Shown one piece after another: positions 12,472-27,930 of a DNA stretch of 64,000 nt. The notes beneath the pieces are model-generated. The model had not been told where the DNA came from, ran no database searches, and saw only the letters and a program-made list of their open reading frames with translations. Position 1 is the first letter of the stretch; each line of letters opens with the position of its first letter. The DNA lies in assembly GCA_963843555.1 (NCBI GenBank), contig CAWJKV010000003.1:1-64000 (forward strand), in the 5' to 3' direction. Source of the DNA: an uncultured Methanosarcinales archaeon. GTDB taxonomy: Archaea; Halobacteriota; Methanosarcinia; Methanotrichales; Methanotrichaceae. The position numbers and the translations under genes were made by a program.

Positions 12472-13401
12472 ATGAGAGCTATCCAATGGCTGATATTTTT
12501 GCTAGTTTTAACCGCACCGGTATCCGTAAGTGCAATGGCTATTGATTCTGTGGACCGGCATTCCACTTCAAATGAGTCCGATTCTTTGGCCTGGCGCAAT
12601 TCAGGTGATGCTTATTATATTATTGGCCAGTATAACGAATCCATCGAGGCCTATGATAGAGCCGTAGAGCTCGATCCCAGGAATGTGGACGTATGGATTG
12701 CCAAAGGCAATGTGCTCAATGACCTCGGTAGGTATAACGAGTCTCTAGAATCTTTTGATAAAGCCCTCAAACTGGATTCCGGGGATGCAGCAGCCTGGAA
12801 TAATAAAGGAATCGCTCTTTCAAAATTAGGCTACTATTTGGAAGGTGTCAGATGCTACGAAGAAGCCATAAATATAAATCCGAAATACGCAGAAATTTGG
12901 GTTAACAAAGGAAATGCCCTTTCGGATCTGGGTAGACACAATGAATCTCTTGAAAGCTATTACAAGGCAATTGAGCTCAATCTGCATTATGCCAGTGCCT
13001 GGTATAATCTGGGTAGCGAACTTGATGAATTGGGCCGTTACAATGAGGCTATAGAAGCCTTTGACAAAGCCATCGAGATAGATCCAAAGGATTCTGAAGC
13101 CTGGAATAACAAAGGAAATGCCCTTCGTGATTTGGGTAGGTATAATGAGTCCATCCAATCTTATGAAAGAGCTACCGAGCTGGATCCCAAGTTGGCACTG
13201 GCATTCAAAAATGAATCGTATGCTCAAGCTTGGTCAAAAATTGTTTGGGATGTGAATAATAATGAATCATTGGAACGCATAAAATCCGAAGGGTGCGAAA
13301 TAATTTCAGGACTGCACAGTTTCATGCTCTCCTTGATATGTGTTCGATGGCTATTTGGTTATTTCTTTCGTCGCCAGGGCCGCTCTTCTATCTTTCGCTG
13401 A
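12472..13401 (+). CDS. Secreted TPR-repeat protein (C-terminus probably truncated, running into the island-end repeat)
   Basis: Signal peptide, ~6 TPRs (AWNNKGNAL...YDRAVELDP); last ~20 codons overlap repeat 13340-13565. Confidence 0.85.
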   Translation: MRAIQWLIFLLVLTAPVSVSAMAIDSVDRHSTSNESDSLAWRNSGDAYYIIGQYNESIEAYDRAVELDPRNVDVWIAKGNVLNDLGRYNESLESFDKALKLDSGDAAAWNNKGIALSKLGYYLEGVRCYEEAININPKYAEIWVNKGNALSDLGRHNESLESYYKAIELNLHYASAWYNLGSELDELGRYNEAIEAFDKAIEIDPKDSEAWNNKGNALRDLGRYNESIQSYERATELDPKLALAFKNESYAQAWSKIVWDVNNNESLERIKSEGCEIISGLHSFMLSLICVRWLFGYFFRRQGRSSIFR

Positions 13402-13565
13402 TGGTCATTGGGTAAAGCCTGAAGGTCTACATGTCCTGTGGGTGTTTCTTGACTTGATGCCAAGTTTATCCTCTTGATTTTTTACTCACCGATCCACATC
13501 CGGGTAACGCCATTACCTGTTGATTCGGTGATTTTAAAAATGGAGATGATATACATATGATTGAA
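13340..13565 (-). repeat. Island-segment end sequence, homologous to 14225-14457
   Basis: Shared blocks gggtaaagcctgaaggtct, ctgtgggtgtttct, tgccaagtttatcctctt, ccgatcc; both copies abut an SRP 3'-end copy. Confidence 0.9.
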
Positions 13566-13615
13566 TGGCAGGCCCGCCAGCGGTTGCCCTCGAACTCGCA
13601 CGCCAGTTAATCCCG
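13566..13615 (-). repeat. SRP RNA 3'-end duplication (att-like), 50 bp
   Basis: Matches 25393-25442 with 1 mismatch. Confidence 0.95.
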
Positions 13616-13736
13616 TGCACCATTGGCGCTCTTGTTTGCTCGGCGGCATCATCGCATATATTTCCTCGCGATAATAACATCAAAAAACTCTGACCTTGTT
13701 ACTGAAACCGGATGGTTTTATGGCCTTGAAATGCAG

Positions 13737-14210
13737 TCAGGACAACCCGAGACGGTCTTTTATGGATCGTATATCTGCCTGCATCTGTCTGAATTGCATT
13801 GCATACCCCGGTTGGACATCTTCTCTCACGCCTTTGATCTCTTCCAGAACCTGAGGGATTGCATCGGTATTCCCTTTCACTGCCAGGAGGATTGGAATCG
13901 CCTTATTCATTTGAGATGCCGTGTTTATCGATGCAAATTGCCACAACGGCATGACGGCCCCGGTGTAGTCCTCGGATCTCACATTATCCACTTTAGCGAG
14001 CGGCGGTCGCTCCAACATGGCTGAGTTATAGAATTTCGTGGTTCTCTGCTCGTCACCTTCGACCAGGGCTATAACTGCCTGTTGTCCATCTTCATCGTCA
14101 TTGTAGACCTCAAAACCTCGGAGGGCCAGGCGCATTGCTAACTCAGCGAGGTAGGGCCTGTAGCCCACGTCATGTACTTTTTGACCTGTGATCGTTATTT
14201 TTAACTTCAT
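13737..14210 (-). CDS. Acylphosphatase-like domain protein with C-terminal coiled coil
   Basis: ITGQKVHDVGYRP, GFEVYN, VIALVEGDE; start at MKLKITI (or up to 14219). Confidence 0.8.
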   Translation of the reverse strand: MKLKITITGQKVHDVGYRPYLAELAMRLALRGFEVYNDDEDGQQAVIALVEGDEQRTTKFYNSAMLERPPLAKVDNVRSEDYTGAVMPLWQFASINTASQMNKAIPILLAVKGNTDAIPQVLEEIKGVREDVQPGYAMQFRQMQADIRSIKDRLGLS

Positions 14211-14224
14211 GCTCATCATGATAA

Positions 14225-14457
14225 GTGTTCGTTGGGCTATTTGATCATTTCTCAAGTTGCCAGGATCTCTTCTATCTTTCGCCTTCATGGTCTTTGGGTA
14301 AAGCCTGAAGGTCTGCATCTCTCTGTGGGTGTTTCTAGACCTGGTGCCAAGTTTATCCTCTTAATTTTTTTAGTCGCCGATCCGTATCCGTTCAATGCCG
14401 TTACTTGTTGTATTCGACGGGATTTTAAGAATAGGAATAAATATACACAGGGTTAAA
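14225..14457 (-). repeat. Island-segment end sequence, homologous to 13340-13565
   Basis: Alignment by eye over ~230 bp. Confidence 0.9.
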
Positions 14458-14584
14458 TGGCAGGCGCGCCAGCGGTTGCCCTCGAGCTCGCGCGCCAGTT
14501 AATCCCGATGCATCCTCCTGCCCTTATACCTATAAGCGACAGTTACCCGCAGCAGGTCTGCTCCCTTCCGGGCCTGAACCGGTT
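14458..14584 (-). repeat. SRP RNA 3'-end duplication (att-like), 127 bp, includes helix 8 motif
   Basis: Matches 25393-25519 with 5 mismatches; minus strand has CAGGCCCGGAAGGGAGCAG. Confidence 0.95.
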
Positions 14585-14790
14585 TGGTGCAGGGAAAAGA
14601 TTGCACCTGTTTTGAACCTCATGCCGCAATAGTATTGCCGAAAGAGAGTTGTGGAAGTTGAAGGGTATGAACTGAAAATCGTCAGCCGTTATAGGTGATA
14701 TAAACCCGATTATGAAAGGGCCGCATTCTAGAGATTTTAAGATCAGATTTTAGAGATATTACTAAAACTAGACATATAAAAGTATCTATA

Positions 14791-15573
14791 TTATTGACTA
14801 TTATCATACAGGTTTCTTAAAATATTTTGTGCACTTTCAGGAAGGAAATAGGACAGAAATAGACTGATTAAGATTCCAACTAGAATCGCGATGCTAAAAC
14901 TGAGAAGCGTTCCGAATAAGATGTATTCGCTGGTTTTTCGTTCATTGAATCTCAAGATTGATTTGGCAGTAACTAATAGTCCTATTGCAGTATATTGGTG
15001 AAGCAGCATCAGTGTGTAGATCAAAAGACGCTCAGTATAGCCGATATACTTGCCTGCATTCTTCAGGCCATCAGAATCCTCAAATTCCGGCCTCCAGCTT
15101 TCAACCAATTTTGATATGAGAATACTGGCTGGCCGGAAAAGGACGATATATCCTGCCAACACGACAATTAAGCAAATCGCAGTGGATGAAGACAGCCAAA
15201 TTTTAAAAAAGGGAATGCCTTGATGCCAATTCAATGGGAATAATAAAGACAGGATTATTATGATTACTGCAAAATGTCCGAGTTGATCGAATATGAATGA
15301 TTTCAGCGTATTATTAAAGTGCGTTTTCATCAAATCTATGACCAAATGGCTCAATAAAGTTAACACGACTACAAAAGCCGTCGCATATAAATTAAAGAAT
15401 AGAGCCGATGCAATCCCTGCAAGAGTGGCAGCTACAAAAGCGTGCAAATAAAGATATTTCGACCTCGATTTGTGCTCTTCTTTGTCTTTTACCCATTTGT
15501 CAGGCTGCAATGCAAAATCAGAAATTATGTGGGCAAAGATCAGGTAGATTAAAAAGGAAAATATTAGCTCCAT
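14791..15573 (-). CDS. DUF3307 (SatE-like) membrane protein
   Basis: AHIISDFALQ, SHLVID, FDQLGH, GKYIGYTERLL, LVTAKSILRF, EYILFGTLLSF; multiple TMs; follows satD-like gene. Confidence 0.85.
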   Translation of the reverse strand: MELIFSFLIYLIFAHIISDFALQPDKWVKDKEEHKSRSKYLYLHAFVAATLAGIASALFFNLYATAFVVVLTLLSHLVIDLMKTHFNNTLKSFIFDQLGHFAVIIIILSLLFPLNWHQGIPFFKIWLSSSTAICLIVVLAGYIVLFRPASILISKLVESWRPEFEDSDGLKNAGKYIGYTERLLIYTLMLLHQYTAIGLLVTAKSILRFNERKTSEYILFGTLLSFSIAILVGILISLFLSYFLPESAQNILRNLYDNSQ

Positions 15574-15577
15574 ATTT

Positions 15578-16272
15578 TTAATCTCCTTTGTGATTAATTA
15601 TGTGACTGTTGATTTTCGTTTTGATCAACTCAGAATACCTTTCAACAATTCTAACCACAATATCGTAATCCGTCTTCTTTAGCCGTCTGCCGACCGCAGA
15701 GAAGCTGATATTTAGCTTTTCTCCGATTTCCTTTAAATTATAATCATCAAGCTTATACATCACAGCAGCACATTGCTTAGTCGTCCATTTGCTTATTAAT
15801 CGATCAACTACTAAGCAATGAATATCCATTTCTGCATCTACTTCAGGCCAGGGCGTCTTAACAATCAGATTTCTATCTCCTTTCAAGTTTCTGTCCAGAA
15901 GTTGGCCGGAATTTCTAAATGCTTCACCTGACATCTCACCGATGTTATAATTGTCCTTGCCAGTTGGGAGATGATCAATTTTTCCCAAGCCTATTGCAAT
16001 TCTAGCGTCTAATCTTGGATAGGTTTCATCTACCTTAAAACTCGATATTAATCTTAGCCGCAAGATAATTGCATCTTTTATTGCGGAATCCGGATTTGAC
16101 GTTGCTATCTGAAAACTATCTCCTCTAAAAATAGACGGCGGGATTAGTGAATTCTTTTCAAATAGTCTAAGGAATCATGAAGATCGTCGACCCAAGAACT
16201 GCCAAATCGTTCTGTAAGTCGAGTTGATCCGATAATATCTCCAGTCATTACTGCATATATTTTATCGTCCAT
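15578..16272 (-). CDS. SatD family protein (cyclase-like palm domain + C-terminal HTH), frameshift near 16170
   Basis: MDDKIYAVMTGDIIGST / IFRGDSFQ / RIAIGLG / GEAFRNSG / EIGEKLNISFSAVGRRLK across two frames. Confidence 0.82.
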
Positions 16273-16432
16273 AGTGGATTCCTTTTTCTACTTAGCATTA
16301 TTTTGATAGAAACGTTACTTAAAGATGTCGGGAAAATCTTTACGCAATTACCCGCGCACGATTTACACGAGCAAGCATTCCCCTTACGTTATCAAATTTC
16401 AGTATAACGCATATGTTATTGTCTCTGATAGA

Positions 16433-16530
16433 AGCATAGATTACTCCAATTTCTGTAATTGGATCATATGTTACTCCAATTTCTATGATTGGAGCATATG
16501 CTACTCCAATTTCTGTAATTGGAGCATATC
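16433..16530. repeat. Tandem 30-bp repeat (3 full units + partial) with internal palindrome CTCCAATT-N5-AATTGGAG
   Basis: Units 16441-16470, 16471-16500, 16501-16530; no spacers. Confidence 0.92.
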
Positions 16531-16849
16531 TTGCAGTACTCTGATTGAAGCAGATCTATTGGAGTATCTTGATGATAGCCGTCATCGGATCATCTCAACC
16601 ACCGATTCCTCGCAGGGAATACGCTTACCCGTCGTCCTCGGTATGGCTTGAACGATCTGGAGGTTTAAACGGCAAATGGCAGACTGCATCTCATTCATTT
16701 CCTTTCTTGATTTCCCGAACCCATTCCCTGATTCCAGGATGATATGGTTATTCAGATCTTAGCATTCGTTTTATCGAACTACAGATTAGACGACACTGCC
16801 GCCGAATGCGGCGGAACAAGATATATCAGATATATAATGCTCATCCAGT

Positions 16850-17710
16850 CTAAATCATTTGCCCGTATATGATTGGGGCCATAGCAATCAGCGTGAATCC
16901 CGTTATCAATCTGATGGAGACTCTGTGTTTGTTCCTGAAATGATCCACTTGCTCTGGGCTCATACCCAGCGCGATGATCCCTCCAATGAGGAGCATTGGT
17001 AGTGCTATGCCCACGTTGTAAATCAACAAATAGAGCAGTCCTGATGAGGCATACCCCTGGCTGGAGATCATGCCGATAATAGCGATATAGATCCCTCCCA
17101 CACATGGAGCCCTTACCAGAGAGAAGAGCGCTCCTAATAGGAAATAGGAGCTGAGCCTGCGGCTGGAAACGACACCATGGACATACTTCTTAGTCCAATC
17201 CGTGCGGAAGAGTGACGTGCCCCCACTTTGTAGCCTCCTGGCATCCTCCAGTTGCATTAGCCCCAAAACCAATAGGACAGCTGCCAGAACAAGGCGGAAC
17301 ATAGCGGCAGTAGACCTTTCCTGTAGAACGCTAAATAAGCCCACAGCGATAACAATGTAGACTGCAAGCATGCCCAGAGAAAAGGCAGCTACCATGGTCA
17401 GGATGTCTTTTCTGCGGCCTGTACTGGACAGCATTGAGCTTGCAAGAAACGCCAGTATAGCAAGAAGACAGGGATTAAAGCCCGCTAAAAGGCCGGCTGC
17501 AAAGACAGTAGCTACAGATGATACAGTGAGATCTTCGAGGGCACCAGCAGTAGCTTCATTAGCGCATACTGGAGAAGTGACCGTGGCGTCTGTAGTACTA
17601 CCTGTAGCTAAGACGGGCGATAAAGTCATGACTGATATCATTATCAGTAAAATTGCGATGATACAGAGTCGCACGGCCTGCATTCTGGTATTCTCGGATA
17701 AGCGTATCAT
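16850..17710 (-). CDS. CcdA/DsbD-like cytochrome c biogenesis (thiol:disulfide interchange) membrane protein
   Basis: GLLAGFNPCLL and RAPCVGGIY cysteine motifs in TMs; YNVGIALP. Confidence 0.85.
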   Translation of the reverse strand: MIRLSENTRMQAVRLCIIAILLIMISVMTLSPVLATGSTTDATVTSPVCANEATAGALEDLTVSSVATVFAAGLLAGFNPCLLAILAFLASSMLSSTGRRKDILTMVAAFSLGMLAVYIVIAVGLFSVLQERSTAAMFRLVLAAVLLVLGLMQLEDARRLQSGGTSLFRTDWTKKYVHGVVSSRRLSSYFLLGALFSLVRAPCVGGIYIAIIGMISSQGYASSGLLYLLIYNVGIALPMLLIGGIIALGMSPEQVDHFRNKHRVSIRLITGFTLIAMAPIIYGQMI

Positions 17711-17973
17711 AGCAGCATATGATGGGTTCTAAGAAGAGGTCGTACCTTGAATTATTTATCAGTATTGATGTAGATCAACTGTCGCATGGAGCTGATGCCC
17801 AAGGAATTCCATGTGAACGGCTCTGCTCCAGATTATCTGCCTAATAGACGATCCATGAAGAACTCATAACCAGCTCCTGCGAAATACGGTACTCTTTACT
17901 CATGCCCCTCCATGCTTGCCGGTCGCCCTATAAATCCGGCTTTGAAAACAGGATCAATATATTTATTGTTAAA

Positions 17974-18065
17974 TGGCAGGCCCGCCAGCGGTTGCCACTG
18001 AACTCGCGCGCCAGTTAGTCCCGATGCTTCCTCCTCCCCTTATACCTATAAGCGACAGTTACCCG
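17974..18065 (-). repeat. SRP RNA 3'-end duplication (att-like), 92 bp
   Basis: Matches 25393-25484 with a few mismatches. Confidence 0.95.
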
Positions 18066-18319
18066 TAAACCTTTAAGCCCTTGATAGATGCGCTAGCATA
18101 TTGATTCTGCTCTTTTAGCCCTCATATTATACATAGTAAACGCGCTTATCGTATATGTAATTTTTGTGTAAATAAATACCATTACTAGTCGTATTTTCAG
18201 GTAATCTATTTCATTTTGTAAAGCATTTACCGTATAATTCTATCACATACCTACTAGAAAGTGGTAGTATACGTGGCATCAACATCTAGCAAGTTGGTTG
18301 GCTTTTCCCAGCCGCCTTC

Positions 18320-19551
18320 ATCTCATATACTTCCTCGCGAAGGTCGTGATGAAGGCCGCCCACAGAAAGGTGCCAAATATGGCTCCTCTATTGCCACGGC
18401 TCGACTATGCAGGAGCAAGCCTATACCCGGCGGGTGCGGATTGATTATAACCGCAATATAGCCAGGGGCTATCGCACGGTAAAGCTGAACCAAATGTAAT
18501 CTGAATGGCATTTGTAGCACCGATTACCCCGTTTCCCGTCCAATAAATAATGGCAAATAGATGTTAAAAGTTGCAATCCACCATACCTATGAGCCACGGA
18601 TGGGGCGCAAATGCGATATCCAAATATCATTGGATAAAAATATATTCTAATACATTATATTTTATAAAATCTTTCAGATGTTTCCACTTTCTCTCTTTAA
18701 TCGCATTGGCTAGACTGTAAACTAATTCGTTTTTATTTTTAGGAAATGAGACACGATTCTCTAACTCAATTTCTCTTACTTCGTCCCAGTCATACAAAGC
18801 CTCGAAAGGTATACCATTTGCTTTTCTTTCCCTTCCATTTCCTTGAAATGATAATAATCAGCTTCTTCTTTATCGCCTGATACTTCGGCTAGTTTTTTTG
18901 CCTTTCTAAATGCGCTTTGCTGAGAATATGGGTTAAAAAATACTGCATTATATAGATTTATATGATTCGTTTTCAAATCATCTAGATCGATATAGTCTAA
19001 AATCCCTGCATCTCTTAATATTAGGCGGCCAAAAGTGGCTTTACTGAAGTCTGCGTGTTTAAAGAATCTAGCTTTTTCGAAATTGCCATCATCCTTGATA
19101 ATAGCCTCACCAAAGCTCGCGCGTCCCATAAATAGACTGCCGACGAAACTGAGACCTAAAGCTTTCTCATACCAATTAGTAGGGCGGTACATAATCTTTT
19201 CAAAAATGGCTGATTGCTCGAACCTTGCCCTTGAAAACTCAGCGCCACACTTAAAGACGGCTCTTTCGAAAAGAGCTTCTTGGAAGAATCTCGTTTTACT
19301 AAAATCGATAAAATCTTGGAAGGATACGTTGCGGAAATCCAGTTTGCCTTGTATTAATGAATCCGTTATCTCAATCTTGCCCGTGACAAGTTTTCTATCA
19401 TCTTTTGCAGAAGATTTGAATTGCCTAAGTTTAAGTCACCTTTAACTATCACGTGATCATATTTCACTAGCTCGCCTTTCTCGATCTTGGCAAGTATCTC
19501 GCTAGCAGGAACCTCTTTCAAGCCTTGATCTTCTTGCGATTCATCTTCCAT
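18320..19551 (-). pseudogene. Pentapeptide-repeat protein with C-terminal membrane region, multiply frameshifted
   Basis: VPASEILAKIEKG...IVKGDL N-terminus, xAxF pentapeptides (ARFFKHADFSKATF), EADYYHFKEM; 3' end approximate. Confidence 0.6.
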
Positions 19552-19750
19552 GCAGCCTTATTTCCTCCGGGAGATGGCAAATGTTGTCGCCATGAATTAT
19601 ATTCTTTCTCTTTTCCAGACGAGCTGACATAGATTACTTTGGCCCGCTCTGGTCCATTTAAATATTAGGTAATCATAAATGAGGATCAATAGTGCCAACA
19701 CAAAGACACATCGCTAAGCCTTAGGCGCTAAAAATGCAGGAAGATGAGAG

Positions 19751-21529
19751 ATGGACCCTATTGTGAGACTCGCGGCAAGTGCATCGCCTGGTGAAAAGAA
19801 ATATGTCCTATTTGCGGGCGCTGGTGTATCAAAAGATGCAGGTCTACCAACATCATGGGATCTAATGATGAAGACTGCAGGCGTATTGTGGGCTGCAGAT
19901 AATAAGGATGGAAATTCAACAATAGATGCAAGTCAATTAGAAGAATGGTTTATCAAGAGCAACTATTCGAAAATGGAATATAATGAATTGATGCATCAAC
20001 TTTATCCGAATTATCCAGATCAACAAAGTTTCCTCAAAGAATATCTAAACGGCAAAGAACCAGGATTATCACATCGAGGTATCGCTGAATTGGCGAGGCG
20101 CAAGATAATAAGAGCAATTATAACCACAAATTTTGACAATTATATTGAGAAGGCCTTAGAAGAAAAAAAATTGGAATATCAGGTAATTTCTAATGATGAT
20201 GATTTAGAGAAATCAGAACCATTAATCCATTGCAAGTCTGTAAGAATCTACAAACCACACGGGGATTTGGGACGCGGCGCGCTTAAAAATACGCCAAAAG
20301 ACTTAGAAAAATTGTCTCTGAAAATGGAAACTGAATTAATTAGAGTCCTAAGTGAGCATGGGGTTATAATTCTTGGATACTCTGGTCGTGATAAAGGCAT
20401 ACAAAAAGTTCTGTCTGAGAGAAATCCAATTTATTATCCACTATTTTGGGTCGATCCATGTACGCCAAATGCAGATATTGAGACTATTTTAAGATCGATA
20501 GACTATACGTACATCCCATGCAAGGGTGCGGGGCAGTTCATAGAAGATTATATGAAAATTATAGAAAAATTGGAGAGTCTGTCACCCAGTCATGGTTTGG
20601 GTCCAACGATATTCGAGATAAGACGTGCATTATCTTCTCCAAATGAGCCTATTGAACCCATCGTTATGGAATTTCTGAATAATATTTATCGACGCTTACA
20701 AGGCATAAAACCGGATTTTACAAAGTTCGATGAACATGATGATGCAATCATCCAGCAAATCGATGATGGATTGATGATTTCTTATGATTTCATAGAAGCT
20801 GCAATAGAGGTAGCCAAGTATAAAAATGTAGGTGCTATTAAAAAAATTTATGAATTTTTTGGTGAAGGATTAAAGCTTTATGATATTCCAGATAATTTTT
20901 CTGGAAGTTATCATACCACTGATTTTGATGGATATAAGTTCTTGCTACAGGAAATGTTCATATCGCTTATAGCTGCCTTGATAAAATACAACCATTGGGA
21001 TCTTATTCAGAATTTGCTAGGTGAAGGATTGCTAATAAATAGAAAACGTGAAGGAGGATACGCTTCATTCAGCGAGCTCAATGCATATCTCTATTCTCTA
21101 GACATAGAGCGAAATAATCGCCTGAATAAGAACCCTCGTAGAATGAGCATAACGGCGGATCTCTTTAATGAAAGATTCAGTAATTCAAAGCTCTCAGAAC
21201 TTATAGAATTCCAGGAATTTATTGAGTCAGATTATTTTATTTTTATACGAACAGTGTGTCATGCGTCAGATCCATTAAATCCTCGACGGAAAGAAATATG
21301 GTCCCCATATAGTAGCGTCTATTTAACACGACCTCCAAGCTTTATTATTAAGGCGGAAAGCAAGAGATTTCTTGAGATCCTGGCGAATTCATCAGGCTGC
21401 TCAGAGCTAGATAGGTTCGTTGATAGACTGAAGAAAAGTTCAGAGATTATCCATAAAATTTGGCAGAGTGGATTTTATAATGGACCTTTGACGTATTATG
21501 ATTTTGAAAAGCTGGGAACTTGGCCATGA
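19751..21529 (+). CDS. SIR2-family (sirtuin/NADase-like) protein with long helical C-terminal domain
   Basis: LFAGAGVS, IITTNFD, YKPHGD, LGYSGRD; intact 592-aa AT-rich ORF. Confidence 0.9.
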   Translation: MDPIVRLAASASPGEKKYVLFAGAGVSKDAGLPTSWDLMMKTAGVLWAADNKDGNSTIDASQLEEWFIKSNYSKMEYNELMHQLYPNYPDQQSFLKEYLNGKEPGLSHRGIAELARRKIIRAIITTNFDNYIEKALEEKKLEYQVISNDDDLEKSEPLIHCKSVRIYKPHGDLGRGALKNTPKDLEKLSLKMETELIRVLSEHGVIILGYSGRDKGIQKVLSERNPIYYPLFWVDPCTPNADIETILRSIDYTYIPCKGAGQFIEDYMKIIEKLESLSPSHGLGPTIFEIRRALSSPNEPIEPIVMEFLNNIYRRLQGIKPDFTKFDEHDDAIIQQIDDGLMISYDFIEAAIEVAKYKNVGAIKKIYEFFGEGLKLYDIPDNFSGSYHTTDFDGYKFLLQEMFISLIAALIKYNHWDLIQNLLGEGLLINRKREGGYASFSELNAYLYSLDIERNNRLNKNPRRMSITADLFNERFSNSKLSELIEFQEFIESDYFIFIRTVCHASDPLNPRRKEIWSPYSSVYLTRPPSFIIKAESKRFLEILANSSGCSELDRFVDRLKKSSEIIHKIWQSGFYNGPLTYYDFEKLGTWP

Positions 21530-21554
21530 AATGCAAGACGCTACATACGTCAAA

Positions 21555-22304
21555 AGCACGCATTATCTCGTTGTTTTTGCCAGTATGCACGTTGTTTCCC
21601 ATCTGCTTCTATTCCCGAATACCTATAGCGGCCCTCATAGATTCCTCGCCTATCCAAAATACGCTTCACCTGCATAGGATGAAAGAGCCTTCTTTATGTC
21701 CGCGATCTTCTTGAGCGAGCATTCCGGCTTCATATCTCGCAGCTCAAAGACCCGCTAACTGTGCTGGCCTTCTCTTCATCCAAGGTAAGGGCCTTGTCGC
21801 CTCGCTCTGCCTTGTAACCGATAGGTGCCTTGCCGCCTGCATAACCACCCTGGCGGGCCTTAGTCTTCCGACCGCTTGACAACCTGGACGTAATCAAGGA
21901 CTTCTCGAACTCGGCAAAAGCCGCTACCATAGTCAAAAGAAGCTTCTGGGTCGGATCTTCCCAGCGGCCCGGTTCCGCAATGCTTACTAGCTCCGCTCCA
22001 AGCTTCTTGATCTCCTTCATGAGCCACAAGGAGAGCATAGTGTCCCTGGCAAGCCGGTCTAGCCTGGTTACAATAACTTGCTTGATGTCTCCGGCCTTCA
22101 AAGCCTCAAGCAAAGCATGCAGGCCGGGCCTCTCCAAAGGTGGCAGCGATCCAGAAAACGCAGGATCCTCGATAGATCTGTACTAGCTCTAGGCCATTTG
22201 CAGCGCAGTACTTCGTGATCGCGTCTCGCTGGGTTTCAAGCCCGAAGCTATCAGCAGCCATTTTGGTTCTCAGTGCTTACCCGGACATAGCCTACTGCTC
22301 TCAT
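21555..22304 (-). pseudogene. Serine recombinase (resolvase + short recombinase domain), frameshifted
   Basis: MRAVGYVRVST (catalytic Ser), ERPGL, VTRLDRLARD, AFAEFE, GGKAPIGY, then QVKRILDRR; at least 3 frame changes; 3' end approximate. Confidence 0.8.
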
Positions 22305-22367
22305 AACAGTAATCAATTAGCGTTATGAGTTTATAAACATAACGGTAATTTTAATTAGCGTTATGAG
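22300..22367. promoter_or_regulatory. TATA box (TTTATAAA, 22330-22337) flanked by two palindromic sites, upstream of the recombinase
   Basis: CTCATAAC-N14-GTTATGAG (22300-22329) and CATAACG-N14-CGTTATG (22338-22365). Confidence 0.7.
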
Positions 22368-22588
22368 ACTCCTCAAAGTGATGGAGTTATCTAAAGATAT
22401 CGGTGCAAAACAGAGTATAACCAAATCAATTATATTAGTGGTTTTCTACGTTTATTATATTATTAATAATTTTTCTTGGTGCGATAAAAATAATTAATTA
22501 GACAATTTTTGTCCATTTATTTCTCTGCATGAAGTCGTGGTTCACAATCTCAATTCTTATATAGTAGGTAGTGGTAAAAACAAATGGG

Positions 22589-23829
22589 ATAACAATGGAA
22601 TCAGCAAAAAATTGCCAAGATTTATTGAATAAGTTAAGATTATGTCAATCTGAGGTTGAGAAGCAGTTCCTAATAGCTGCAGATAAACTCGGCCATTCGA
22701 AAGAGTTAGAACCCCAATATCCTGCATTGGGTTATTATATTGACTTCGCAATCGTAAGTAGAAAAATTGCAATAGAAATTGATGGACACGACTACCATAA
22801 AACTATCGAACAAAGAACCCATGATAGTAAGAGAGATCGCGCTCTTGATTTAGATGGATGGAGGGTTATAAGATTCACAGGTTCAGAAGTCCGAAGAGAT
22901 GCGAGAGCATGTGCAAAAAGAGCTACAATGGAAGTATCTACAAATCTAATTTCAACACCGAAGAAAAATAGGCATGAGAAATTTTGTGAATTATACCAAA
23001 TCGCCAAAACAATAGATAATATAAATTTCGGTGATGGATCTATTGATGATATATCACTCCAGATAAATCCTAAGAAACACAAAATATACATGATCGAGCC
23101 TTAACATTATCAAGAGAGGGTAAATATGAGGAATCCATAAAAATCTTTAAGGAATTAATTGATAAAAACCCCTCATTCATTTGTGCTTATAATAATGTGG
23201 GCTGCGACCTAAATAGTCTTGGCCGATACGAAGAGGCAATTCGATGTTTTGAGATAGTTCTGAAGCAAGATCATTTGGATGCAATTGCCTGGGCAAATAA
23301 AGGAGTTGCTCTAAGTGAATTAGGCCATTATGAAGAAGCCATAAGATGTTTTGATGAAGCACTTAGAGTAAGGAATCCATATACATTTGCTTTGAATAAC
23401 AAAGGCATCGCTCTTGCCAAAATAGGGCAAATCAAAAACTCATTTGCTTGCTTTGATGCTATATTTAAAAGAAATCCAAAACTTCCATCTAATGCTCCTG
23501 TGTGGAATGATAAGGGGAATATTTGCTTTGAGCTACGGCAATACAACGACGCAATTGACTGTTATAGGAGTTCAATTAAATTGGACCATTCAGATCCAAT
23601 TGTATGGAATAATATGGGCAAAACTCATTACATTATTGATCAGTTTAGAGAGGCTAACGAGTGTTATGATAATGCAGTTCACCTAGATCCCTTTTATGAT
23701 GATGCATGGTTTAACAAGGGAAAGGCTCTTAAAAAATTGAAAATCGAGGATGGAGCAGAGTCTGCTTTCAAGAAGGCAAGAGACATAAAATCAGGAAAAT
23801 TGACAGATCCTCGGAAGGAGCCACCTTAA
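22589..23829 (+). CDS. DUF559 (Vsr-like endonuclease) domain fused to TPR repeats; frameshift near 23085
   Basis: IDFAIVSRKIAIEIDGHDYH...RD...GWRVIRFTGSEV; frame of ORF 23197 extends upstream (HDRALTLSREGKYEESI...) to overlap the end of ORF 22571. Confidence 0.75.
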
Positions 23830-23930
23830 GTTGAGGATCGAATATGCTCTTGTTTACTGAGATAATGCTTAGAACCTTCCGACAATGTCAGGCAGATATA
23901 AATAGTTTTATGTTGCATCTTTAATTAGAA

Positions 23931-24534
23931 ATGAATCAAGATAGAATAGATGATGCAGCGAGTGATATTGTGAGAACTGATGATGCGGACCCAATAGCTA
24001 GATTAGAAAAAGCTAAAGAAGAATTAGCTGATGCTCTTGAGAAAAATGATACATATGGGCGAACGAAGAAAGTTTTAAATGATGCAAATAATTGGATTTT
24101 AGCAACAAGTGCAGGGACGTTAGTATTAATTTTAAATGATTATAAACTGTTCTTATTAAATTCACCCACCCAAGAAAAGATATACCAACTTCCAGGAAAG
24201 TATTATTTTATTAGTTCAATAATTATTCTAATCTATATCTGTGATAGTATTAGGATATAATAAAATTCAGCTTATAAAAAGAGATTGGATCATGAATATG
24301 TCAATAGATAGTTTATCTATATTGAGGGATGAGATACTGGATCCAGAGAATAAGACAAAGGATATAGAAGCATATACAAATGAAAGTATTACAGAAATCT
24401 ACGAATCATGGCGTGCAGGCCATGAGATAATAGTGAATCGGGATAAAACTCTGATAGTCGGAATTTTTATATATATTATTGGCATCATAGTTTATGGATC
24501 ATACTTCAGTGGTATATATATTAATTATAATTAA
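23931..24534 (+). CDS. Hypothetical membrane protein (two ORFs, probably one frameshifted gene)
   Basis: ORFs 23931..24260 and 24241..24534 overlap; hydrophobic segments; AT-rich. Confidence 0.55.
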
Positions 24535-24794
24535 TTATGTAGCGCTATTATGAAAATATAGGGCGGCAACCGTCTTTTTGTAATCTTAAACCCAAGTCTC
24601 CAAACAGGCTCTTTTGAGCGAATCTCGCCCAGAAACAACAACTCAGAGTGGGAAGTACATGAAGAGAATGAGGCGGGGCAACGATTGAGATCGAATGAAA
24701 TCGATTTCATATTGCCAATAACGAGACGCTCAGCGGCGAGGAGTTTGAAATCGATCTGAAAATGTGACGGGCAATATATTGATGATGATTAGGT

Positions 24795-25061
24795 TCATTG
24801 TTTTTGTCGCATCGCCGCGATCTCAGCATATTTCGCTTGAAAACATTCTACTGCCTTCTTTGCCCTTCGATATCGATCCTTCATCATTTCCGCTATTTGC
24901 TCTTCGTCAAAGCCCGACTCTGTAGAATCGAAAACTCCTGCAAAAGTTCCAGATCGGCATCCGCTAAGGTCTGCAAGCACCGATTCTACGATATCTGGTT
25001 CAGTGGTCGGTTGTTCTTCCAGCCTATCGATCCGCTTCTGCAGCGTCTTAATCGCAGTCAT
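24795..25061 (-). CDS. Small hypothetical protein of the integrated element
   Basis: 88-aa ORF with GGAGG upstream and coiled-coil-like N-terminus. Confidence 0.45.
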   Translation of the reverse strand: MTAIKTLQKRIDRLEEQPTTEPDIVESVLADLSGCRSGTFAGVFDSTESGFDEEQIAEMMKDRYRRAKKAVECFQAKYAEIAAMRQKQ

Positions 25062-25234
25062 TGCTTGGCCTCCGCGCCCGACTGCTTTTCTAGGGCTGCT
25101 GGCCGTGCTCAGTCAGCCAGCGTTCGAACCTCTTCAAAGCCGGATTAACATCCTTAATAATTTGGCGATTCCAGTTCACCTTTTGCCCAGTCATTTTCAG
25201 CCACCGAATTCCTCGAAGGGAATGCGCTTACCCG

Positions 25235-25381
25235 TCGTTCTCGGTGAAGACTTCGAAAACAGAATCAATAAAAGAAGGGCATGTTCTAGATTCTTAACGG
25301 CTCGCTAAGCGACAAGATCGAACAGCGCAGCGGTTTGATCTTATCGTTCTCGGTGAAGACTTCGAAAACAGAATCAATAAA
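25235..25381. repeat. Perfect 38-bp direct repeat (25235-25272 and 25344-25381) at the element end next to SRP RNA
   Basis: tcgttctcggtgaagacttcgaaaacagaatcaataaa occurs twice. Confidence 0.92.
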
Positions 25382-25392
25382 TAAGAGTTAAA

Positions 25393-25707
25393 TGGCAGGC
25401 CCGCCAGCGGTTGCCCTCGAACTCGCGCGCCAGTTAATCCCGATGCGTCCTCCTCCCCTTATACCTATAAGCGACAGTTACCCGCAGTAGGTCTGCTCCC
25501 TTCCGGGCCTGAACCGGTTCCTGCAATTATGGTACACAGATCTTCCTTCAGGAAGACCCATGGACCGGTGCTATCCCTACAGGACGGAGAATCATTGTCT
25601 GCACCTGGACTGAACGCGCAGCGCCCAAAGTCTTCCGCCAGCTTCGCCCCCCGCTTATCGACGATTTCGGGTTATAGGTGACGCCGAACCACCCGGACTG
25701 CCCGCCA
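25393..25707 (-). ncRNA. ffs: Archaeal signal recognition particle (7S/SRP) RNA
   Basis: ~315 nt; terminal helix TGGCGGGC/GCCTGCCA; Alu domain GGGTGGTTCGGCGTCACCTATAACCCG; helix 8 CAGGCCCGGAAGGGAGCAG; TATA-like TTTATA ~25 nt upstream. Confidence 0.96.
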
Positions 25708-26414: not shown

Positions 26415-27419
26415 CTACGAGCGCGACTGATCGCCAGCGCGAAGCAGGTGCTCCAGCTTCTCCACACAGCTCCAGGTCAGGATCAGCTGGGCAAGACCGA
26501 TGGCGTTGACGTACTCCTGCCTCCTGTCGCTGATGATGGCGTAAGTACCCAGTGAGTCGCCCAGCTTCTTCTCCAGCTCCGCAATCATGGACTGATGAAT
26601 CTCGCCATCAACAGTCATGATGCCCACATTCTTGCCGTAGTAATCGTCCCGCTGAAATTCAATGGAAAACTCGTGCTCGGACCTGTGCAGTATCTTGCTG
26701 AGATCAATGGTCAGACCAACCTCAGAGACAGGCTGATCGAGGGTCGGAAGTATCAGCCGCACCGAGTACCAATCGATGGCAGGCTCCGCCTGCAGCGGGG
26801 AGGGATGAAACCGGGAATCCTGGATCTTGATCACGATCTCGGCATAGATCTTCTGGATGTCTACGTAGAGTTTGTAATCGGGCTCGCGCTGCAGGATCTC
26901 TGCCATCACCTGATCAGGGTTGTAGCCCCGCTCGCCCACATCGCGTCTCACCTTCCAGAGCCGTTTTACAGACCGGGAGGGGTCCACAAAGATCTTGAAA
27001 TCGATGAGACTGCGCAATCGCTCTGTGTAAAGCGGATGAAGCCCCTCCACGATTATCACCGGCGCGGGGCCAAAGGGCACCGTACCACTTATGGCGCCTG
27101 TGCTGTGATCGTAAACGGGCTTGTCGATGCTCTCGCCGCGGCGCAGTGCTTCCAGGTGATCCGCCAGCAGGTCGAGGTGATTGGCGTCCGGGTGCAAAGG
27201 CGTGATATTGCGCTCTTTTCGCTGCCTTCTATCCAGGCTGTGATAGTCGTCCATGGAGAAGGAGGCCACCATCTCTTCGCCCAGTATTCTCTTTATGCCG
27301 CGAGATATGGTCGTCTTGCCCGAACCGCTGTCCCCGGCAATTCCAAAGACGAATACCCTGCCGGATTCCTTGATCCTGTCCATGAGAGATTCCGTAATCG
27401 GTTTCGTGATAGATTCCAT
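26415..27419 (-). CDS. prk: Phosphoribulokinase
   Basis: GIAGDSGSGKTT, DDYHSLDR...ITPLHPDAN, KPVYDHSTG, VEGLHPL, WKVRRD..ERG. Confidence 0.88.
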   Translation of the reverse strand: MESITKPITESLMDRIKESGRVFVFGIAGDSGSGKTTISRGIKRILGEEMVASFSMDDYHSLDRRQRKERNITPLHPDANHLDLLADHLEALRRGESIDKPVYDHSTGAISGTVPFGPAPVIIVEGLHPLYTERLRSLIDFKIFVDPSRSVKRLWKVRRDVGERGYNPDQVMAEILQREPDYKLYVDIQKIYAEIVIKIQDSRFHPSPLQAEPAIDWYSVRLILPTLDQPVSEVGLTIDLSKILHRSEHEFSIEFQRDDYYGKNVGIMTVDGEIHQSMIAELEKKLGDSLGTYAIISDRRQEYVNAIGLAQLILTWSCVEKLEHLLRAGDQSRS

Positions 27420-27533
27420 AAGAATGCTATTGCCTCCTGAGAAGGATGACTCTGGCGAGAGATGAGATGAATGTATGCTTTTACAGAGAATTTGCCAAAT
27501 TGAAATCGTTATCTCTTATCTGGGCGCAAAAGA

Positions 27534-27930
27534 CTATTCCGCCTTTTCTTCCGGGTTCCCCGCGGGTGTCACGCGGTGGGGTGACGGGGCGAGACTTATG
27601 GCCGTGCAGGCCTCTTGACCCCGCGTCCGCTATATGTCTGCAATCTAGCCTCCGTCGCTTGGCCGGCCGCGGCCTTGAGCGGCGCCCCAACCATATCGCG
27701 GGAGGCCCGCAGGGCCGACTCGCGGCACCCCGGAAGAAAGAGAGGAAGCGGTCTTCGTCTGCATCTATTCTATCCAGTCTGCAGTCAAATGACATCAGCA
27801 TAGCTTTGGTCAAGACGCAAAAGTTTATTCCACCTCTTCTTCCGGGGTTCCGCGCGGTGAGACGCGCTGGGGTGACGGGGGCGCACTCGAGGCCGTGCGG
27901 GCCCCCCTGACCCCGCGTCCGCGGGGGACA
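27534..27930. repeat. GC-rich hairpin element: two diverged direct copies (27534-27630, 27826-27926) and an inverted arm (27721-27747)
   Basis: Shared tattcc-cct-ttcttccggg...ggggtgacgggg...ggccgtgc...tgaccccgcgtccgc; arm cgcggcaccccggaagaaagagaggaa is complementary to the left end. Confidence 0.75.

Follow-up and report, generated by a model that had tools for sequence, protein, structure and literature searches.

bSEFIR (Millman et al. 2022; PADLOC model PDLC03957, DefenseFinder SEFIR) is a single-gene system whose family protects against phage phi29, according to the accessible part of 10.1101/2022.05.11.491447. The available portion of 10.1101/2024.02.11.579819 reports that bSEFIR depletes nicotinamide adenine dinucleotide (NAD+) through its N-terminal domain, that the SIR2_2-type domains of DSR1, DSR2, ThsA, SIR2-HerA and SPARSA, like the SEFIR domain of bSEFIR, deplete NAD+ on infection, and that TIR, SIR2 and SEFIR domains cleave NAD+ to ADP-ribose and nicotinamide in defence. 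Here we describe a gene from an uncultured Methanosarcinales archaeon (assembly GCA_963843555.1) that lies within the first 64,000 nucleotides of contig CAWJKV010000003.1, the stretch analysed as a whole and called the window below. Its protein, P0001, consists of an N-terminal SIR2_2 domain, a disordered linker and an all-helical C-terminal domain of ~300 aa, referred to as the tail. On sequence and profile comparison, this tail is homologous to the C-terminal domain of bSEFIR over its whole length. The gene and its main parts are as follows.

19751..21529, plus strand: whole gene, an uninterrupted open reading frame (ORF) of 592 codons encoding P0001, a 592-aa protein with a SIR2 domain and a bSEFIR-type C-terminal domain
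19751..20560, plus strand: SIR2 (SIR2_2 / immune sirtuin) domain, residues 1-270, identified from Pfam, solved relatives and Foldseek
20561..20617, plus strand: interdomain linker, residues 271-289, with a predicted local distance difference test score (pLDDT) <50 at residues 279-282
20618..21526, plus strand: C-terminal all-alpha domain, residues 290-592, homologous to the bSEFIR C-terminal domain

The start of P0001 agrees with the MNPIV/MDPIV start of 25 full-length relatives in the alignment. The full-length AlphaFold model (mean pLDDT 88.1, predicted template modelling score (pTM) 0.56) contains two well-folded domains, each of them confident. The gene has a G+C content of 0.37 and a third-position G+C content (GC3) of 0.31, and its flanks a G+C content of 0.53. 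Scans for sigma-70 promoters and terminators around the gene gave matches at chance level only, and such models are not meaningful for an archaeon. A TATA-like sequence, TTTAAATA, is located ~90 nt upstream of the gene. Among sequencing runs, no RNA run was listed as containing the sequence, and one DNA run shared 0.05 of its words.

The homology between the tail and bSEFIR is evident from a single pairwise comparison. BLASTP aligns residues 293-560 of P0001 with residues 186-452 of P0188 (E 9e-12, 24% identity, 283 columns), and the alignment pairs FDGYKFL, ESDYFIFIR, IWSPYSSVY and KAESKRF of P0001 with LELFSFL, EADAFLYIK, IWWPHASFY and KSERSSY of P0188. P0188, a 490-aa protein retrieved at E 6.7e-16 by a profile of 21 tail-only sequences (A2), is a genuine bSEFIR: its residues 1-453 are covered by the PADLOC bSEFIR model (E 6.7e-93), and it carries Pfam SEFIR (E 5.1e-14) and TIR_2. 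In the reverse direction, residues 193-419 of P0188 match positions 323-545 of the model for PDC-S65, the PADLOC family of P0001, at E 3.7e-4. Comparison by hhalign of the SIR2-family profile with P0188 gave a probability of 96.9% (E 1.5e-10). The same profile against a bSEFIR profile of 24 sequences (A3) gave a probability of 99.9% and E 1.2e-35 over 291 columns, placing residues 290-592 of P0001 on positions 183-490 of bSEFIR, and the tail-only profile A2 against A3 gave E 1.2e-48. Controls in which A3 was reversed, or its columns shuffled five times, returned E values of 0.1-0.26. The sequence-only reading of this stretch had suggested, from its motifs, that the C-terminus resembles that of SEFIR proteins, and had named a lack of such homology as grounds for abandoning the idea; BLASTP, hhalign and a plasmid search by tblastn instead identify the resemblance as homology.

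The relationship extends well beyond one pair of proteins. The A2 hidden Markov model detects the tail in 119 of 120 bSEFIR-family proteins, and the PADLOC bSEFIR model matches the tail region in 9 of 30 scanned tail relatives. In P0070, a STAND-LuxR protein that has no TIR-like domain, residues 467-739 match bSEFIR model positions 204-364 (E 1.4e-6). When the P0001 tail was compared by tblastn with 72,556 plasmids, six records were matched. One of these, from Pseudomonas luteola, is annotated as a "SEFIR domain-containing protein" and aligns with 86% of the query at E 7e-13; in this 480-aa gene product the match spans approximately residues 220-479. The other matches are annotated as "SIR2 family protein" (Azospirillum, E 1e-17) and as TIR-domain proteins. 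A word-indexed search with residues 285-592 of P0001 returned 32 proteins, every one of which carries SIR2_2, a result that by itself would speak against the SEFIR resemblance.

The P. luteola bSEFIR gene (L054; plasmid NZ_CP044087.1, 99763-110542) is situated in a phage-like hotspot, with portal, terminase, Dam methylase and HicAB genes on one side and HigA, recombinase and reverse transcriptase genes on the other.

The N-terminal domain is supported, by its conserved catalytic residues and nearest relatives, as the effector of P0001, an immune-type sirtuin and putative NADase. The sole significant Pfam domain in the protein is SIR2_2, which covers residues 122-226 and scores 55.1 bits (E 1.1e-14; cut-off 24.5). 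Three groups of codons correspond to predicted functional positions.

19817..19825, plus strand: codons of G23-A24-G25, the Rossmann NAD-binding loop, invariant in alignments A1 and A5 and pairing with GAG of 8jkz
20129..20137, plus strand: codons of N127-F128-D129 in TTNFD, the predicted catalytic Asn/Asp; N127 and D129 are invariant and pair with TTNFD of 8jkz
20258..20260, plus strand: codon of H170 in KPHGD, the predicted catalytic His, conserved and pairing with HGD of 8jkz

In A1, an alignment of 26 full-length family members, GAG (23-25), N127, D129 and H170 are invariant. In A5, to which seven more distant members were added (31 sequences), N127 and D129 are still invariant and H170 is at least 90% conserved. 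These positions and the Pfam match bear out the earlier claim that SIR2 motifs are intact in the first ~270 aa. Among solved sequences, the Argonaute-associated Sir2 8in8/8jkz is nearest (E 1.6e-13), and the Foldseek neighbours are anti-phage SIR2 proteins, namely SPARSA 8y80 (E 2.4e-9), DSR2, ThsA and KomC, with template modelling (TM) scores of 0.56-0.66 normalised to isolated SIR2 chains. PDB titles name the His mutants DSR2 H171A and KomC H146N as forms used for trapping NAD.

The tail is found behind many kinds of N-terminus. An exhaustive phmmer search with residues 285-592 against 1.84 billion representatives retrieved 755 proteins at E <= 1e-3, of which 320 reach E <= 1e-10 and 22 reach E <= 1e-30; a large number are ~480 aa long and matched at ~195-480. 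N-termini were scanned for 104 of the 150 listed tail relatives, a set from which short, mostly tail-only entries and P0014 were excluded, with the following result.

N-terminal SIR2_2: 8 of 104 tail relatives (Pfam)
N-terminal TIR_2: 6 of 104 (Pfam)
N-terminal DUF4062: 4 of 104 (Pfam)
Weak CAP12/Pycsar-type TIR: 34 of 104 (E 4e-6 to 9e-4, mostly under the gathering score)
N-terminal protein kinase: 4 of 104 (Pfam)
nSTAND1 with GerE: 1 of 104 (Pfam)
PIN_4: 1 of 104 (Pfam)
No Pfam match at the N-terminus: 46 of 104

In these architectures the tail stands C-terminal to a recognised effector or output domain. The interchange of effectors, which the sequence-only reading had listed as known for SIR2 and TIR-like domains, is seen directly, with SIR2, TIR_2, SEFIR, DUF4062, kinase, PIN and STAND N-termini on one type of tail. 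DUF4062 ("NIR") is itself reported as a defence NADase in the accessible text of 10.64898/2026.09.04.749371; together with the NADase roles reported for SIR2, TIR and SEFIR, this means that four NADase classes share the tail.

A quick IQ-TREE phylogeny was built from 130 tails with labelled N-termini, thinned to <62% identity, with unlabelled and near-duplicate sequences excluded; its sampling is biased, one set having been gathered from the P0001 tail and the other from P0188. All 65 SEFIR-linked tails lie on one side of a single branch with a Shimodaira-Hasegawa approximate likelihood ratio test (SH-aLRT) value of 98. P0001 falls within a clade of 18 rows (SH-aLRT 96) comprising 13 SIR2, four DUF4062 and one HTH-TIR_2 (helix-turn-helix) fusion; the nearest non-SIR2 tails to P0001 carry DUF4062 or HTH-TIR. 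Two further SIR2 fusions, P0048 and P0135, are placed among the TIR-like fusions. The SIR2 label requires five changes on this tree, and the starred branches force at least two. The tree indicates that N-termini have been exchanged repeatedly on the tail scaffold. On the basis of this topology, bSEFIR is taken as a sister form of P0001 rather than its donor or direct parent.

The tail is covered by no Pfam or NCBIfam model, either in P0001 or in any fusion partner scanned. An AlphaFold model built on A2 (pLDDT 93, pTM 0.93) is nearly all helical, with one small hairpin, and agrees with the full-length model in being helical beyond approximately residue 290, as the sequence-only reading had expected of the region after SIR2. 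The structural search that it had proposed for the C-terminus yielded no informative solved relative, the best Foldseek E values for the tail model being 0.04 (TM <= 0.26) in the PDB and 0.067 in BFVD. A PDB sequence search with the tail gave no match as a single sequence and E values of 0.29 and 1.4 as a profile, and a search of the ESM Atlas reached a best score of 0.78, which is under the meaningful level and counts as no more than a lead. When the tail was compared with 48,161 chains by VIA-align, Z did not exceed 8.2, the leading matches being to the Sec7 C-terminus, designed helical proteins and MIF4G/HEAT-like chains. Since helical models reach approximately Z 13-14 by chance in this method, no known fold is assigned, and the fold is not claimed to be new. 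A Pfam EcoEI_R_C match to residues 466-544 (E 0.029, 14.9 bits) is under its cut-off of 24 and otherwise unsupported, and was rejected.

Conservation in the tail was expressed as weighted frequencies over 274 near-complete tails. The highest values are those of W517 (1.00), D494 (0.92), F397 (0.91) and P519 (0.91), followed by E401 (0.82), D393 (0.79), S466 (0.78) and R475 (0.74); D330, R454, R457, D470 and R500 are conserved at 0.64-0.70. Every motif quoted in the sequence-only reading is present in the translation of P0001, at the following residues.

KPHGD, residues 168-172
FDGYKFLLQEMF, residues 392-403
RNNRLN, residues 454-459
RRMSITADLFNER, residues 463-475
FIESDYFIFIR, residues 490-500
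WSPYSSVY, residues 517-524
KAESKRF, residues 534-540

The C-terminal motifs in this list are not a chance selection, as F397, E401, D494, W517 and P519 are among the most conserved positions of the 274 tails, which have differing N-termini. Strong conservation of charged positions would be unusual for sensors that bind fast-evolving phage proteins, and the conserved polar positions leave open a ligand-binding, a scaffold or even a catalytic role. Within the family, mean identity is 56% for the tail and 71% for SIR2, the tail thus diverging faster.

PADLOC, proposed in the sequence-only reading as a check, assigns P0001 to PDC-S65. Model PDLC05061 matches residues 2-505 on profile positions 17-521 of 592 (E 1.4e-62, 210.8 bits), and PDLC05060 matches at E 9.2e-31. 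PDC-S65 derives from the "guilt-by-embedding" screen of Payne et al. 2024 (10.1101/2024.01.29.577857), in which, by the accessible text, it is one of 145 untested candidates, and that part of the preprint makes no mention of SIR2 or SEFIR. In the searchable literature, neither the name PDC-S65 nor the name bSEFIR was found, nor any description of a tail shared by SEFIR, SIR2 and TIR single-gene proteins.

The gene is rare among close relatives of its host. Of 105 genomes belonging to the order, two contain the tail, as do four of 401 sampled from the phylum; the genus is represented by 58 other genomes, all of which lack it. Two of the phylum loci (L050 and L051) are archaeal bSEFIR genes with the tail, in which Pfam SEFIR (E 2e-19 and 6.9e-15) is stronger than TIR_2; they fit the Methanosarcina bSEFIR homologues mentioned by Millman et al. 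in the part of that paper available. One of two weak partial phylum matches, L053, is a more distant SIR2 fusion. Several methanogen lineages and at least eight bacterial phyla have full-length relatives, with identities of 40-61%. The archaeal ones are from Methanothrix, Methanoculleus, Methanosphaerula, Methanobacteriaceae and Methanomicrobiaceae, and the bacterial ones from Latescibacterota, Chloroflexota, Auribacterota, Zixibacteria, Bacillota, Pirellulales, Anaerolineales and a deltaproteobacterium. Among viral contigs, 31 pattern matches included none confirmed as a relative, and phage records gave no tblastn match.

The bSEFIR model matches 39 of the 105 genomes of the order, in every case within model positions 19-232, the SEFIR/TIR half, and often in ORFs of ~1000 aa. 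None of these matches is a bSEFIR-like gene bearing the tail, and the window's own genome is unmatched. At L001, L003-L005 and L010, SEFIR/TIR-type N-termini (bSEFIR positions ~27-203, E to 1e-31) head ORFs of ~1000-1100 aa; these ORFs of related methanogens are probably NLR-like (nucleotide-binding leucine-rich-repeat-like) immune proteins.

No recurrent neighbour family was found across 14 related loci. Transposase or insertion sequence (IS) genes adjoin the relative in four of them (L014, L015, L016 and L020). Two loci are clear defence islands, L025 with a TIR-like ORF, ApeA/PDC-S58 (E 5.7e-85) and a DruE fragment, and L023 with TIR-like, HerA-like, ParE and DUF4238 neighbours. L029 is flanked by Gp49/HTH toxin-antitoxin genes.

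In the window, the gene is part of a low-G+C island adjoining a signal recognition particle (SRP) RNA gene. The features of this island other than the SIR2 gene are as follows.

25393..25707, minus strand: archaeal SRP (7S) RNA gene, the apparent integration target and island boundary (Rfam RF01857, 191.4 bits, model positions 1-317 of 317)
17941..18065, plus strand: partial direct copy of the SRP RNA 3' end (~105 nt of the gene), 86% identity to the reference copy
14424..14584, plus strand: second partial direct copy of the SRP RNA 3' end (~140 nt of the gene)
13549..13619, plus strand: third and shortest partial copy of the SRP RNA 3' end (~55 nt), 89% identity, left edge of the low-GC island
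21730..22276, minus strand: serine recombinase (resolvase) remnant, 200 bp downstream of the SIR2 gene (Pfam Resolvase positions 48-144 of 145)
22571..23104, plus strand: DUF559 / MTES_1575 restriction-endonuclease-like ORF, 177 aa, with a weak partial match to PADLOC PDC-S37 (E 1e-6)

The three partial copies are in register, with a common start boundary at the 3' end of the SRP RNA gene, and form the pattern that site-specific elements inserting one after another at the 3' end of an RNA gene would be expected to leave. The interval 13549-25707 looks like a tandem array of integrations that used the SRP RNA gene as attachment site. On its left side, G+C falls from ~11.4-13 kb. The SIR2 gene lies in a 7.3-kb segment bracketed by the SRP RNA gene and the copy at 17941-18065, which also contains a tetratricopeptide repeat (TPR) protein. 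The resolvase remnant is split over two frames, the main frame lacking the first ~47 Pfam positions and the N-terminal piece lying in the other; its local G+C is 0.53 against 0.35-0.38 around it. The low G+C, the rare and patchy spread and the location in an SRP RNA island together indicate that the SIR2 gene is a horizontally acquired, accessory and mobile gene.

Several repeats were observed in and around the island. An exact 38-nt duplication (25235-25272 and 25344-25381) lies directly outside the 3' end of the SRP RNA gene. A fifth SRP RNA 3'-end fragment (81% identity) is present on another contig of the same genome (C5:181114-181180), where it may mark the scar of another integration or represent a second att-like site. 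Related TPR-repeat coding sequence (repeat families D2, D4 and D12) occurs in two island segments, at 12719-13227 and 23213-23730. ORF 16325-16651 contains, at 16422-16532, copies of a 51-nt repeat that overlap one another at a period of 30 nt and encode a repetitive peptide rich in Cys, Asn and Trp. Farther on, GC-rich direct repeats of ~100 nt (27510-27612 and 27801-27903) with inverted-repeat arms between them (span 27510-27922) adjoin a gene of the phosphoribulokinase/uridine-kinase family (26415-27419, minus strand).

We consider it fairly probable that P0001 is an NADase working as a single-gene system of abortive infection; its C-terminal module would detect infection and switch on NAD+ hydrolysis by SIR2. 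In this mechanism the tail would be the sensing or activating part; on detecting infection it would release the SIR2 domain, probably through the formation of oligomers, as other SIR2 and TIR effectors do, and the released domain would hydrolyse NAD+, leading to growth arrest and a block of viral replication. The NADase activity, the sensing by the tail, the activation by assembly and the growth arrest are all inferred. In STAND NTPases the sensor is classically C-terminal to the NTPase. A regulatory role is suggested for the tail because it is shared with bSEFIR, stands C-terminal to output domains as STAND sensors do, and diverges faster than SIR2. A number of observations weigh against this mechanism. 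The sensor role would follow from architectural position, by analogy only, and no paper naming the trigger of bSEFIR was found in the searchable literature. The conserved polar positions D393, E401, R475, D494 and W517 (0.74-1.0) could equally reflect an enzymatic or scaffold role. The interdomain geometry of P0001 is not confidently modelled at a pTM of 0.56, so that autoinhibition and its release are conjectural. PDC-S65 is a computational candidate family, described by its authors as untested, and P0001 is below detection by the PADLOC bSEFIR model (no match at E <= 1), which means that the SEFIR link requires profiles or pairwise alignment. Unmistakable defence neighbours occur in just two of the 14 related loci, the rest being uninformative or housekeeping, and 13 neighbours in the window have no strong PADLOC match, the DUF559-type and TPR ORFs giving weak partial ones at E ~1e-6.

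A broader proposal is that the tail is an ancient and widespread immune module, represented by at least 755 bacterial and archaeal clusters (50% identity), which relays one conserved infection signal to whichever output is fused to it. The outputs fused ahead of it comprise SIR2, TIR, SEFIR, DUF4062/NIR, kinases, a PIN nuclease and a STAND-LuxR regulator. We regard this proposal as possible and rather doubtful. The invariant polar pocket formed by D393, E401, R475, D494 and W517 suggests as the signal a small molecule or nucleic-acid product rather than a phage protein of variable sequence.

SIR2, TIR and SEFIR effectors are generally activated by assembly, and PDB titles give helical or tetrameric ThsA, KomC, DSR2 and SPARSA. 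This is consistent with a defence NADase whose tail is an oligomerisation or autoinhibition scaffold, or itself an enzyme, common to many effectors, the trigger being read by the effector domain, a host factor or a cellular state such as a nucleotide or nucleic-acid product. Such an arrangement would also account for a compact all-alpha domain with generic helical-repeat matches only, and for the conservation of D330, D393, E401, R454, R457, S466, D470, R475, D494, R500 and W517 whatever the effector. We judge it unlikely, however, since the tail diverges faster than SIR2 within the family and in the STAND-LuxR fusion occupies the C-terminal position usual for sensors. The location of the gene inside successive SRP RNA insertions and beside a decayed recombinase raises another explanation, that it serves a mobile element as an addiction or exclusion toxin, its NAD+ depletion stabilising the island or fighting competing elements. 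Transposases beside relatives in four of 14 loci, toxin-antitoxin genes flanking L023 (ParE) and L029 (Gp49/HTH), and the plasmid bSEFIR among HicAB and HigA genes point the same way. However, no antitoxin-like small gene is conserved beside the gene across loci, and the homologous bSEFIR protects against phi29 (accessible text of 10.1101/2022.05.11.491447), which makes a toxin of this kind improbable. The lack of relatives on viral contigs and phage records likewise runs counter to it and is uninformative for other elements. Weak NCBIfam matches to CobB-type deacylases (25.4 and 22.6 bits) and a match to 1ma3 Sir2-Af2 (E 6.6e-5) recall a housekeeping or regulatory sirtuin, a protein deacylase or ADP-ribosyltransferase with no conflict role whose tail recruits the substrate. 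The curated cut-offs for the CobB-type models, however, are 243 and 320 bits, far above these scores; SIR2_2 is the best-matching family, and defence NADases are the closest structures. Furthermore, none of the 58 other genomes of the genus contains the gene, its base composition is foreign, and its tail is common to TIR, SEFIR and DUF4062 NADases; a housekeeping role is thus very improbable.

bSEFIR has been validated experimentally, and no paper assigning a role to the half outside its SEFIR domain was found in the searchable literature. The shared tail turns a PDC-S65 candidate into a specific relative of a working system, and defines a new domain family that as yet has no Pfam or NCBIfam model. 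It also makes available a natural domain-swap series for determining which half senses and which kills. If the signal is indeed common, solving one trigger, for example that of bSEFIR with phi29, would explain many single-gene systems, including archaeal ones. P0001 documents such a system in a methanogenic archaeon, in an SRP RNA island, and antiviral NADases have been little studied in this group. Both the homology between the PDC-S65 and bSEFIR tails and the breadth of outputs look new, as neither was found in the papers searched. As the exchange of effectors is already well known in this field, the finding is less surprising than it is useful.

Among described families and systems, PDC-S65 is the same family as P0001 and differs from it in no respect of kind; more distant SIR2-tail relatives match the same model. 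With bSEFIR, P0001 shares the layout of effector, linker and tail, and both are single genes with no recurrent partner (14 related loci of the P0001 family); the NAD+ depletion of bSEFIR is the chemistry expected of the P0001 SIR2 domain. The two differ in that the N-terminus of P0001 is SIR2_2, with no SEFIR or TIR match (Pfam, E <= 1), and in the tail, where identity is ~24% and the bSEFIR tails form their own clade (SH-aLRT 98). Millman et al., in the available part of their paper, define bSEFIR by an N-terminal SEFIR match stronger than that to TIR. P0001 has no such N-terminus, and does possess the C-terminal domain of bSEFIR (PADLOC model positions ~200-400).

DSR1 and DSR2 resemble P0001 in combining, in a single polypeptide, an N-terminal SIR2 NADase with a C-terminal helical part, which in DSR detects phage. 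The SIR2 domains are structural neighbours, while DSR2 chains of 919-1002 residues are roughly twice the length of P0001. NCBIfam Dsr1 scores 16.3 bits on P0001 against a cut-off of 1400, and PADLOC Dsr1 matches residues 14-136 only (E 0.0021); no DSR-like protein came up when the tail was used as a sequence query, and the tail is matched by none of the Dsr models. The Sir2-APAZ protein of SPARSA has the closest SIR2 domain by sequence (8in8), PADLOC model and structure (8y80), and PADLOC Aga_SIR2-PNTD1-PNTD2 matches residues 16-236, the SIR2 domain only, at E 3.9e-33. P0001 does not belong to SPARSA or the short prokaryotic Argonautes (pAgo), as it lacks an APAZ region and none of its neighbours in the window was identified as an Argonaute gene. 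Nor is it a Thoeris ThsA, a protein in which SIR2 is followed by a SLOG/STALD ligand-binding domain and which has a ThsB TIR partner gene, matches to the PADLOC ThsA models being confined to residues 16-222 and the all-alpha tail differing in fold; no ThsB-like gene is present among the window neighbours. The DUF4062 (NIR) fusion P0034 (E 2.5e-54, 39% identity) and the HTH-TIR fusion P0036 belong to the same tail clade as P0001 and have effectors of a different fold. Avs, HEAT-repeat (Vulcan) and Vesta are among the partners of DUF4062 described in the accessible text of 10.64898/2026.09.04.749371, which does not describe a P0001-type tail. By its sequence, P0001 is thus a new member of a catalogued candidate family and, relative to the experimentally known systems, an effector-swapped variant of bSEFIR.

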